The position numbers and the translations under genes are program-made. Shown one piece after another: positions 4,393-9,881 of a DNA stretch of 24,787 bases. Below the pieces are notes generated by a model that saw nothing but the letters and a program-made list of their open reading frames with translations, was not told where the DNA came from and made no database searches. Origin of the DNA: Candidatus Woesearchaeota archaeon (GTDB taxonomy: Archaea > Nanobdellota > Nanobdellia > Woesearchaeales > SKGA01). Position 1 is the stretch's first letter. Every line of letters begins with the position of its first letter. Where the stretch lies: contig JAFGOT010000032.1 in NCBI GenBank assembly GCA_016926395.1, positions 1 through 24,787 of the forward strand, read 5' to 3'.

Positions 4393-5946
4393 TTACCAGT
4401 TTAGAAGTTGATGTGTTTTTTTGTAAACAACGTATGTTATGCTAAGATCTTTGCTAGCTCCTTTTCCTGCTTCTTTAATTTTGTTGTCATCTCTTGGTTT
4501 TTCTTTTTCAGCTTCTTTTTTATCGCTCTTCTTCTTTTCACTTGAAGAATTTTCAAAGAATGATTTTCCTAGTTCTCCAAATCCTCGTCCGATATCAAGA
4601 AATGGTCCTAATAATCCAAATTTTGAATTTTTATCGTGAATTCTTTTTGCTTCATTAAAATCTGCATCGTCTTGTTCTTGTTGTTTTTTTTCTTCTGCTC
4701 TTTTTGCAATCATATTTTCTTCGCCAGCTTCTTCTAAATATCTTTCAATATCTTCTTTCATTGCTTCAAATGCTCCGCCGACATGTTCATCAATTGAACT
4801 TATTATGCTCATATCTTCTTCTTGTCGCATTTTTTTATATGTTTCAATATCTTTTTGATGCCAGCCATATGATCTTAATGTTACTGTTACTTTTCCGGTG
4901 TGCGCTACTGCTTGTTGTCCCCATTCAGGTTTAAATGTTAATGTTGGCTTTGTGTCATATCTAAAATTTGCAAGGATACATCTGTAATGTTTATCTTTAT
5001 TTTTTAGGTCTGTTGGTTTTTTTGCCAAGACTTCTATTTCTAATATTGTGTGATCAAATGCGTTAATTAAATCAGGACTGTCAAGTTGCTTTGAGTTTCT
5101 GTTCATTCGATGAGCTGTTTTAATATATGGTTTAACCCATGCCATGTTTAATTCTATTGCTTTCCAGTGTTGCCTTAAATATCTAACTTGGAATTTTCTT
5201 TTAGAAACTGTTTCTTGCATGATATTATTTCGCCAATTAATATATCCATACAATTTTCTTTTTAGAACTGTTCGAACATTTTTGTTAAACTCGCTTGTTT
5301 CACCTTTATCAACTGCATCGTCAATTCCGCCTAAATCATAGACGTGTGTGTTGAAAAACAAGTCAGGAAGAACTGCATACCCTATTCTTGTTGCAAGTCC
5401 ATATATTGAGTCAGGATTTTGTCCTCCTCCTTCAACGAATTGAACGTAATGTTGTTTTAGTGTTATGTCGGCACTCTTACTTTTGTCCCAATTTTTATAC
5501 AGTTCCATTCTTTCATCAAGAACTCGTAATTCTCTGACTAATGGAAATAATTCTTTTATCATCACACCAATACTTCTTAGGAATTGTACTGCTCTGTCTT
5601 GTTGTATTCCTTGCTTTTGTGCGACATTACCAAACATGGCGCTACTTTCGCTGCTGCTAAATATGTCATAAATTTTATCGACTTGAGGATATCCTAAATC
5701 GTATCGTAAAAATTGTAAAAACCAGTGATATGTTTCTTCTAAACTCGTGTCTGTTTTTTCAATAATTGCTTGTTTTCTATTTGTTGGTTCTGGATATGCG
5801 TCTTCGTCTGTTTCATCTGCTGTTTGGTACCATCCTACATTTTCTAAGTTTACAAACTCATCTTCTTCTATTTTCCAGCCTAACTCTTTCCCAAATTCTT
5901 TAACGTAGTCTGTTTTGTTTTCGTAGTGCTTCTTGCTTCCTAACAT
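4393..5946 (-). CDS. Hypothetical protein (517 aa), mostly helical with a charged C-terminal region
   Basis: Long ORF with a TTTATAAA-type box near 5973-5980 upstream. No family recognised with confidence. Confidence 0.8.
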   Translation of the reverse strand: MLGSKKHYENKTDYVKEFGKELGWKIEEDEFVNLENVGWYQTADETDEDAYPEPTNRKQAIIEKTDTSLEETYHWFLQFLRYDLGYPQVDKIYDIFSSSESSAMFGNVAQKQGIQQDRAVQFLRSIGVMIKELFPLVRELRVLDERMELYKNWDKSKSADITLKQHYVQFVEGGGQNPDSIYGLATRIGYAVLPDLFFNTHVYDLGGIDDAVDKGETSEFNKNVRTVLKRKLYGYINWRNNIMQETVSKRKFQVRYLRQHWKAIELNMAWVKPYIKTAHRMNRNSKQLDSPDLINAFDHTILEIEVLAKKPTDLKNKDKHYRCILANFRYDTKPTLTFKPEWGQQAVAHTGKVTVTLRSYGWHQKDIETYKKMRQEEDMSIISSIDEHVGGAFEAMKEDIERYLEEAGEENMIAKRAEEKKQQEQDDADFNEAKRIHDKNSKFGLLGPFLDIGRGFGELGKSFFENSSSEKKKSDKKEAEKEKPRDDNKIKEAGKGASKDLSITYVVYKKTHQLLNW

Positions 5947-6205
5947 CTCTATTGTTTCTTGGGCTCTTTTTGTTTATAAATCTTTGTCACTATATTTCTA
6001 GAGGAAATAAGGGTTATTTTGAATTAAAATATTTAGAATTCGCGTGTTTTAGGCTTTGAGATGTTGTTATTGTGTTGGTTCTCTGCTCGCCAATAGTCTG
6101 GGTCTTACTCCCCCTCATTTCCACTGCAGTATACATTTTTGTATATTAAGTTGCGATTATCCTCTTTATTTTTTTAAGAGCTTTTAATTGATAAGAATTA
6201 GTTAA

Positions 6206-6236
6206 AAATAAAAATAAAAATGCAGATTTTACTCTG
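6206..6236 (-). terminator. Putative rps6e terminator (short hairpin plus T-tract)
   Basis: The minus strand reads GCAG-AGTAAAAT-CTGC followed by ATTTTTATTTTTATTTTT across the stop codon. Confidence 0.5.
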
Positions 6237-6636
6237 CTTTTGGTTCTTCAGCTGCAGGTTCTTCTACTTTTTCAATAGGTTCTTTTCCCCACTTCACAAC
6301 TTTCAAGTTGATCTGTGCAGTTTTTTCACCAATTGTGTTGCCTGCTACCATTTTACGAAGTTTTAGACCTTTTCGTCCTTGGTTTTTCATACCCACTCCG
6401 CCTACAATTAGAATTTTTTTACGTCCACTACCTGTAACGTCTTTTCTCATTGGGAATCCTGCATTATCGCTTCCGCCTCGAACTTCTAGTTCATAGCCTG
6501 CTGGTAATTCTAATGATTCTCCTTTTACAATGTCTCCAATTCGTTTACCGATTAATGGAGTAATATTTTCTTCAGTTAATGTTTTGTTGTATGTTTTTTT
6601 GGTTTTAGCGTCACCAATATTTACTTTAATTTCCAT
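6229..6636 (-). CDS. rps6e: 30S ribosomal protein eS6 (S6e)
   Basis: LIGKRIGDIVKGE, GYELEVRGGSDNAGFPMRKDV, GLKLRKMVAGNTI, QINLKV. Start moved from the GTG at 6645 to the ATG at 6636, which has SD GGTGA 5 nt upstream. Confidence 0.96.
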   Translation of the reverse strand: MEIKVNIGDAKTKKTYNKTLTEENITPLIGKRIGDIVKGESLELPAGYELEVRGGSDNAGFPMRKDVTGSGRKKILIVGGVGMKNQGRKGLKLRKMVAGNTIGEKTAQINLKVVKWGKEPIEKVEEPAAEEPKAE

Positions 6637-6648
6637 TGTATTCACCTT

Positions 6649-6727
6649 CCGAGATTACTCTTGCCAGCAACAACGCTTAGATTTCGGTTCCAGAATCGCG
6701 AGTCGCAGCCACTTATCGGCATCTCAG
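6649..6727 (-). promoter_or_regulatory. Putative structured 5' leader (r-leader candidate) of rps6e
   Basis: GC-rich 79-nt segment closed by CUGAGAU/AUCUCGG with internal hairpins. It lies between the TATA box (6753-6760) and the SD (6642-6646). Confidence 0.55.
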
Positions 6728-6752: not shown

Positions 6753-6760
6753 TTTATAAA
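6753..6760 (-). promoter_or_regulatory. TATA box for rps6e
   Basis: The minus strand reads AATAAG-TTTATAAA-TA, predicting a transcription start near 6730. Confidence 0.6.
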
Positions 6761-6856
6761 CTTATTCCAATCAAAGCATTTTTAAATGATTTATTCCATT
6801 TTTATTGACAGTTAACCGTTCCTTGTTAAGGTGCTGTTTGTGTGAGTTGAACTATT

Positions 6857-9803: not shown

Positions 9804-9881
9804 TGTGGGCGTTGCTTGCCTGAACGGAACGGCGACAGTTAATCTGCGCTTAGGGGTTAAAATTACTAATCTTTCCCCGCA
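9804..9881 (+). promoter_or_regulatory. Putative structured 5' leader (r-leader candidate) of rpl15e
   Basis: GC-rich segment closed by UGUGGG/CCCGCA with two internal hairpins, lying between the TATA box and SD GGAGG (9890-9894). Confidence 0.55.

Follow-up and report, generated by a model that had tools for sequence, protein, structure and literature searches.

A conserved helix adjoining the Shine-Dalgarno sequence of rps6e defines a candidate eS6 leader family in Woesearchaeota

Ribosomal protein L1 of Methanococcus (MvaL1) represses its own mRNA through a mimic of its rRNA site located near the start of the message, and archaeal L7Ae does so through leaders that carry a kink-turn (K-turn). 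To our knowledge, the feedback RNAs of archaeal ribosomal proteins that are known or have been proposed are few, namely those of L1 and L7Ae and the candidates for S15, eL15 and L4, with none for eS6, a protein present only in archaea and eukaryotes and for which we know of no mRNA target. A survey of ribosomal protein leaders (r-leaders) described in archaea those of S15 (in two forms), eL15 and L4, none of them for eS6 or from DPANN archaea (PMC7247131). In this work, we analyzed the DNA upstream of rps6e, the gene encoding eS6, in a woesearchaeal genome where an earlier sequence-only reading had proposed a structured RNA leader as a candidate eS6 autoregulatory element. That reading had also known of no leader described for eS6, and neither Rfam 15 nor a full-text search of the literature revealed one. 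Within the limits of Rfam 15 and the literature searched, the rps6e leaders reported here are a new r-leader family.

The DNA under study, referred to here as the window, is a stretch of 24,787 nucleotides from Candidatus Woesearchaeota archaeon, which constitutes contig 38 of a genome of 1.02 Mb that is 82.5% complete. On its minus strand, rps6e (6229..6636, with the ATG at 6636-6634) encodes a protein of 135 amino acids that was assigned to Pfam PF01092 (Ribosomal_S6e, E 7.4e-31) and that also has counterparts among the eS6 chains of archaeal ribosome structures (6TMF, 6SW9, 6SKF, 4V6U, 9FHL, 8HKX and 9O17). A GC-rich element of 79 nt precedes the gene (6649..6727, minus strand) and covers the whole structured leader, from the 5' strand to the 3' strand of a closing helix, P1; GC content reaches 0.47-0.53 between positions 6640 and 6739, compared to 0.18-0.25 in the flanks and 0.32 in the genome. 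The TATA box of the rps6e promoter, TTTATAAA, was read from the sequence at 6753..6760 (minus strand), where the purine-rich AATAAG (6761-6766, minus strand) precedes it. On the other side of the element, an AA dinucleotide separates the 3' strand of P1 from the Shine-Dalgarno (SD) sequence GGUGA (6642..6646, minus strand), which is complementary to the 3' end of the 16S rRNA (...GGAUCACCUCCU) of a genome of the same genus, G001. A search of the window genome's own assembly returned no 16S rRNA, and 16S rRNA from relatives stands in for it in all comparisons. Coordinates, GC island, promoter and SD had all been proposed in the sequence-only reading, and were confirmed by inspection of the sequence and by the GC profile.

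Upstream of rps6e, a divergently oriented gene coding for a PAC2-family protein has its own promoter. Since a T-rich run follows the rps6e stop codon (~6220-6204, minus strand) and the next gene carries a TATA box of its own, rps6e is monocistronic.

Beyond the end of rps6e we also observed a block of 24-30 nt, GUAUACUGCAGUGGAAAU(A/G)AGGGGG (6110-6134, minus strand), situated about 95-120 nt past the stop codon and conserved at 93-96% identity in at least 11 relatives, although the identity of their eS6 proteins is only 60-83%. This block is always found on the same strand and downstream of rps6e, at a variable distance, and it is non-coding, given that the codon preceding it is not consistently a start codon. 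Pairing is possible between its GGAAAUGAGGG and CCCUUAUUUCC, which lies some 100 nt farther downstream (complement 6003-6013), just ahead of a start codon in several relatives. Rfam was empty for the block and no rRNA complementarity was found; we regard it as a candidate non-coding RNA or a candidate leader of the 517-amino-acid gene that follows. This open reading frame (4393-5946, minus strand) belongs to no Pfam family and is kept downstream of rps6e in G001 (L003, 3..968), with a similar N-terminal segment (ENKTDYVK.FGK.LGWKIEE).

Archaeal TATA boxes are centred about 26-27 nt upstream of the transcription start. In the window, 25 nt separate the TATA box from CUGAGAU, the 5' strand of P1, and the C at 6727 lies 33 nt from the box. 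Among 85 relatives that bear the motif defined below and have a TATA-like box, the C of CUGA is most often 31 nt away from that box, and 54 of them fall within 31-35 nt. From the usual spacing and these distances, the transcript is predicted to begin 1-4 nt before P1, so that the element would represent the entire 5' untranslated region (UTR) up to the SD. The original suggestion that the structure starts near the predicted transcription start thus held beyond the window, with the helix beginning at the predicted position in most genomes. No U-tract terminator was found after the leader, and the ribosome-binding site adjoining the 3' strand of P1 would serve as the expression platform.

In the window leader, P1 is formed by CUGAGAU (6721..6727, minus strand), whose CUGAG is invariant across the family, and AUCUCGG (6649..6655, minus strand), which ends 2 nt ahead of the SD; the two strands enclose an interior of 65 nt. 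Above P1, the minimum free energy (MFE) structure contains an inner stem-loop domain, GCU-GCGAC-U-CGC ... GCG-UU-GUUGC-U-GGC (6663..6709, minus strand), capped by a hairpin (6696-6680, minus strand) that can be drawn as AUUC-UGGAACC-GAAAU or as UGGA-ACCGAAA-UCUA, and connected to P1 by the 3' joining strand AAGAGUA (6656..6662, minus strand). A candidate P2 hairpin with an A-rich loop, GCC-GAUAAGU-GGC (6708..6720, minus strand), cannot coexist with the three outermost base pairs of the inner stem, and a fold constrained to contain P2 has an energy of -19.9 compared to -20.5 for the MFE structure. The multibranch fold drawn by eye in the sequence-only reading reached only -16.4, falling some 4 kcal/mol short of the MFE. 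Its P1 was right, being conserved and covarying among relatives, and two of its other pairings found no support: ACUC/GAGU consumes bases of the inner stem, which covaries, and UUG-CUGG-CAA clashes with the same stem.

Folding of the single sequence gave no better result than chance, as the MFE of -20.5 kcal/mol has to be compared with -19.1 +/- 2.9 for dinucleotide shuffles (z -0.48); the plus strand folded worse (-16.0), also without significance. For this reason, the case for the leader rests on comparison. Together with the location between the divergent promoters of rps6e and the PAC2 gene, this lack of a significant fold is what might be expected of an operator acting at the DNA level, in the form of an inverted repeat for a transcription factor, or of a GC-rich remnant devoid of function. 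The comparison of relatives described below bears on these two readings.

Upstream regions of eS6 genes were collected from 40 related genomes, 80 genome records and 78 metagenome contigs, which yielded 170 distinct sequences. The relatives, which were found through their eS6, are named Candidatus Woesearchaeota or Nanoarchaeota archaeon and are hence DPANN archaea; some records are labelled "uncultured Methanosarcinales archaeon", apparently by a pipeline. A region was scored as bearing the motif when it contained a helix CUGA...YYCGG of at least 5 contiguous pairs (mostly 6-7) that ended 9-21 nt before the ATG. By this definition, the motif was present in 91 of the 170 distinct regions and missing from about 46% of those sampled. 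In the relatives, P1 stops 0-2 nt short of the SD or its last 1-2 G also belong to the SD, and the purines of the SD (GAGGA, AGGAU, GAGGU etc.) adjoin the helix, with the ATG 9-21 nt on. Conservation of the 3' strand of P1 may be due in part to the SD itself.

The leaders could be sorted into four classes. The first consists of bare hairpins, 18-33 nt long, whose loop is rich in A, such as CUGAGG-UUAAGAC-CCUCGG, the smallest of them having 18-25 nt. Three-way junctions of about 50-60 nt make up the second; they have a P1 of 7 bp followed directly by P2-like hairpins with UAUAAA, UAUAU or GUUAAA loops (for example CACCC-UAUAU-GGGG), then by a variable P3 and a joining strand of 3-4 nt. Most genomes of the window's genus have the third, a 46-nt form with a P1 of 10 bp, a 5' bulge of 6-7 nt that is A-rich, and a second helix GCUGC-tetraloop-GCGGC. 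Expanded forms constitute the fourth, in which we placed the window leader with its 47-nt stem-loop above P1. The leaders are a previously undescribed, Woesearchaeota-wide rps6e family in which the interior above P1 varies by lineage.

Two further arrangements were observed in the collected regions. In one sub-lineage (L070, L081, L082, L093 and L116), a short CUGAGG-AUUUAG-GCCUCUGG hairpin is located some 60-100 nt farther upstream, CUCUGGGAGG occurs as another copy at the SD, and a TATA-like TTTATTCTAATATA lies between the copies; this two-copy arrangement may reflect alternative pairing or a displaced promoter. In three GC-rich metagenome contigs of non-woesearchaeal origin (L195, L206 and L208), another conserved hairpin, CAUCCGUU...AACGGGAU, directly precedes the eS6 ATG, and other archaea may accordingly have rps6e leaders of other shapes.

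In an alignment of 10 same-genus sequences (A1), 92.6% of the cells in paired columns could pair, compared to 25-50% when the 3' partners were slid by 1-3 columns. Double changes occurred in 8 of 15 pairs, including 6 of the 10 pairs of P1, and none of 500 column shuffles reached the covariation score of A1. The three-way-junction class was represented by a separate alignment (A3) and model (R2), and realignment over 35 hits gave alignment A4, where 89.4% of the cells pair versus 25-53% after sliding, with double changes in 6 of 13 pairs. Here P1 was 99% paired; its C-G, U.G, G-C, A-U and G-C pairs were invariant or nearly so (35/35), and the sixth pair covaried (GC in 20 sequences, AU in 6, CG in 5 and UG in 1). 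All three modelled pairs of P3 showed double changes, and pairing in P2 amounted to only 61.5% in this model-fitted alignment. The conservation and covariation in relatives on which the first proposal had been made to depend were thus both found.

These data also indicate on which strand and at which level the structure exists. As the invariant U.G and the many G.U pairs would turn into mismatches if the opposite strand were read, the structure belongs to the sense-strand RNA. An operator or a remnant is difficult to reconcile with G.U and U.G pairs and compensatory changes that work only in such an RNA, with an element placed downstream of the TATA box and within the transcript, or with a position conserved over many families; we consider either of them very improbable.

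In order to establish which genes carry the structure, whole genomes were searched with two models. Model R1, run against 41 whole genomes, found exactly one match in each of 12 out of 13 same-genus genomes, always directly upstream of eS6, in addition to a single weak stray match (E 0.08). With model R2, 15 matches at E<=0.01 were obtained in 150 whole genomes of the order, one per genome, and all 15 were located 8-16 nt upstream of eS6 on the same strand. The window leader is likewise unique within its 1.02-Mb genome, where loose pattern matches (contigs C15 and C21) sit inside coding regions; a general leader or a repeat was therefore ruled out. A phylum-wide scan with an IUPAC pattern proved too loose, its controls matching nearly as often, and was discarded.

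The window leader itself was not recovered by either model: R1 with filters off produced a partial match of 7.5 bits (E 6), and R2 gave nothing at E<=1. We attribute this result to the insert of 47 nt that it carries in place of the tetraloop or short hairpin of its relatives. The closest relative, L147 (a metagenome contig of 1 kb whose eS6 is 83% identical in amino acid sequence), shares with the window the TATA box, CUGAGAU...AUCUCGG and the AAGAG of the joining strand. Between the two, 13 consensus pairs of the inner stem are kept, with 3 compensatory and 2 one-sided changes. At the place of the window's GCCGAUAAGUG, L147 has an AU-rich insert that replaces the P2 hairpin. The P2 of the sequence-only reading was consequently upheld in part: it has analogues in the three-way-junction class of distant relatives (for example CUGAGAU-GCCC-UAUAAA-GGGU in L098), but it is absent in L147 and competes with the inner stem. 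The base of that stem, GCUGC/GC(U)GGC, has its counterpart in GCUGC-tetraloop-GCGGC, the P2 that covaries in the 46-nt form of the genus. The window copy thus appears to be an outlier, the membership of which rests on the invariant P1, on the spacing to promoter and SD, on synteny, and on G001 and L147 as intermediates.

A simple explanation for a helix in this position is that it works independently of any protein, as a 5' hairpin that shields rps6e mRNA from 5'-to-3' decay or fixes its translation at a low level, with no feedback by eS6. Such a role would suit a P1 that opens the predicted transcript and, in many genomes, shares the first 1-2 G of the SD, and it would suit the smallest members, which are plain hairpins of 18-25 nt. 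It leaves unexplained, however, five base pairs that stay invariant while the rest varies freely across more than 100 families, an invariant U.G where a C-G would be stabler, and the restriction to one gene per genome. We therefore consider a purely structural hairpin unlikely. The persistence of five base pairs across many families with a variable remainder argues instead for sequence-specific recognition.

We then considered which factor could recognize the leader. At the gathering threshold, Rfam 15 reported only tRNA in the whole window, and no eL15 leader was among its results although rpl15e has its upstream region there (9804-9881). Within the leader region, relaxing the threshold to E<=10 brought up only PYLIS_4, with 16 bits versus a cut-off of 50, and 20 relatives searched at E<=1 gave only tRNA and an overlapping, weak, sub-threshold match to mascRNA-menRNA. 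A tRNA or split tRNA was rejected, as ARAGORN gives only a tRNA-Cys located elsewhere. Likewise, a K-turn or L7Ae site was rejected by inspection of A1 and A3, which showed an internal loop of 6-7 nt on the 5' side versus 0-1 nt on the 3' side and no opposed GA/AG. A match to an unrelated known RNA, which would have refuted the sequence-only reading, was thus not found in Rfam 15 for the window or for the 20 relatives.

Recognition by a trans-acting factor other than eS6, whether a different ribosomal or translation protein, a small RNA or a small-molecule ligand (that is, a riboswitch), might be read from the three-way-junction forms with their conserved loops, such as UAUAAA and ACCGAAA, and it gains from the fact that the assignment to eS6 relies only on gene association and a short resemblance to rRNA. 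Nevertheless, the transcript codes for eS6 alone, the genus form shows no tandem G.A signature of a K-turn (its 3' internal-loop strand having 0-1 nt), and Rfam returned no riboswitch or known protein-binding family. For a riboswitch in particular, members of 18-25 nt are too small to hold a metabolite pocket, and this reading was rejected on the anatomy of the leaders. Overall, a factor of this kind seems to us improbable.

The sequence-only reading had also proposed a comparison with the 16S rRNA region contacted by eS6. In yeast, eS6 acts early in organizing the 5' domain, and the helices it contacts are h6, h8, h10 and h13 (PMC12825303). In an archaeal 30S-ABCE1 complex, the hinge residues of ABCE1 that touch G137-A139 of h8, which from the numbering would be the apical GAAA loop, also stack on R69 of eS6 and form a hydrogen bond with its M1 (PMC7196836). 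No statement on an eS6-h8 contact was found in PMC3553981 (Armache 2013) or in a preprint on the human 40S subunit. Archaeal eS6 contacts no other ribosomal protein and is therefore an autonomous RNA binder (PMC9932298).

In G001, h8 reads CUUCGG-GAAA-CUGAGG-GUAAAC, and 27 relatives have YYUYGG-GAAA-CURARG, with GAUAAC before it and an A-rich stretch, GUAAAC or CUAAAC, after it. The invariant part of P1 and the apical stem of h8 are the same duplex, CUGAG(G)/(C)YUCGG, down to the U.G wobble beside the terminal C-G, and in both RNAs the CUGAG strand runs into an A-rich segment (AUAGAAG, UAUAAA, CUAAGA or GAUAAGU in the leaders). The leader would be a circular permutation of this stem: the C-G end of h8 is capped by GAAA, whereas in the leader the 5' end of the mRNA and the SD are located there.

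The likeness spans only 5-6 bp, and about 10% of dinucleotide-shuffled 16S sequences contain a YUCGG-N3-10-CUGAR hairpin. Furthermore, the leader is more conserved than h8, as exemplified by G022 and G023, in which h8 has CUAAGG/CCUUGG but the leader keeps CUGAG/CUCGG. A lineage-by-lineage covariation of P1 with h8 was inconsistent and was rejected; the sole trend, a U at the fifth pair in the rRNA and in most leaders of the window's family with C elsewhere, is a single phylogenetic event with exceptions. Thus, the comparison proposed at the outset yielded a candidate site, in that the P1 duplex equals the h8 apical stem, but this agreement stands at a chance level of about 10% and changes in h8 are not tracked by the leader. 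Since so short a duplex arises by chance at that rate and the leader does not follow h8, we regard mimicry of h8 as suggestive only.

A second identity with 16S rRNA was considered and dismissed. The 11-mer GGCUGCGACUC of the leader (6699-6709, minus strand) is identical to nt 1188-1198 of G001 16S rRNA, in the head domain. Its score of 23 has to be set against 18.2 +/- 2.2 for shuffles, 8 of 200 of which reach it, so that the identity is probably due to chance, and nt 1188-1198 is no eS6 region.

Translational feedback by eS6 through the rps6e leader is in our opinion the best explanation, and we hold it with moderate confidence. It is preferred on account of the placement of the leader, its covariation, its exclusivity to one ribosomal protein gene and its direct contact with the ribosome-binding site; that rps6e is the only gene on the transcript also counts for eS6. 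According to this proposal, rps6e mRNA would begin with the P1 helix, the 3' strand of which would run directly into the SD. When eS6 is in excess over free 16S rRNA, it would bind P1 and the adjoining A-rich segment, a portion of the leader that would resemble the apical stem and internal loop of h8 beside eS6 in the 30S subunit. Bound eS6 would hold P1 shut and keep the 30S subunit from reaching the SD next to it, and less eS6 would be made. The narrower proposal, that woesearchaeal eS6 may control its own translation by means of a circularly permuted copy of the h8 stem placed at the extreme 5' end of the mRNA and against the SD, is advanced tentatively and appears to us rather doubtful as a whole; eS6 binding, rRNA imitation and repression are what we infer.

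Represented by more than 90 examples that covary clearly and are strictly specific to one gene, the motif is ready for RNA-family curation, and it offers a short defined RNA of 18-80 nt for the study of RNA recognition by eS6. It also suggests that genome-reduced DPANN archaea keep a dedicated, predicted control of ribosome stoichiometry. If the feedback proposal is true, eS6 would gain its first autoregulatory RNA and the DPANN archaea their first described r-leader family; if mimicry of h8 is true, a circularly permuted mimic would join the known strategies of rRNA imitation.

The nearest counterparts of the rps6e leaders are the archaeal r-leaders of Eckert and Weinberg 2020 (S15-Halobacteria, S15-Methanomicrobia, eL15-Euryarchaeota and L4-Archaeoglobi; PMC7247131), which are likewise covarying structures in 5' UTRs. 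In that work too, the ligand was deduced from the gene and a resemblance to an rRNA site was proposed, and eL15, like eS6, is a protein of archaeal/eukaryotic type (PMC7247131). The rps6e leader differs from this set (PMC7247131) in its ligand, its DPANN lineage, its sequence and structure, and its proposed site, h8 of 16S rRNA. MvaL1 acts through a 23S-like L1 site and L7Ae through a K-turn, whereas the rps6e leader is without a K-turn signature. The leaders of bacterial S15 offer another parallel: a small-subunit protein is thought to read a G.U/G-C helix copied from 16S rRNA, the site adjoins the SD so that binding controls initiation, and several unrelated shapes serve one protein across lineages, as do the classes of rps6e leaders. 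For bacterial S15, both binding and mechanism (entrapment or displacement) come from experiments, whereas the rps6e leader is known from sequence, and the protein and the rRNA site are different in the two cases.
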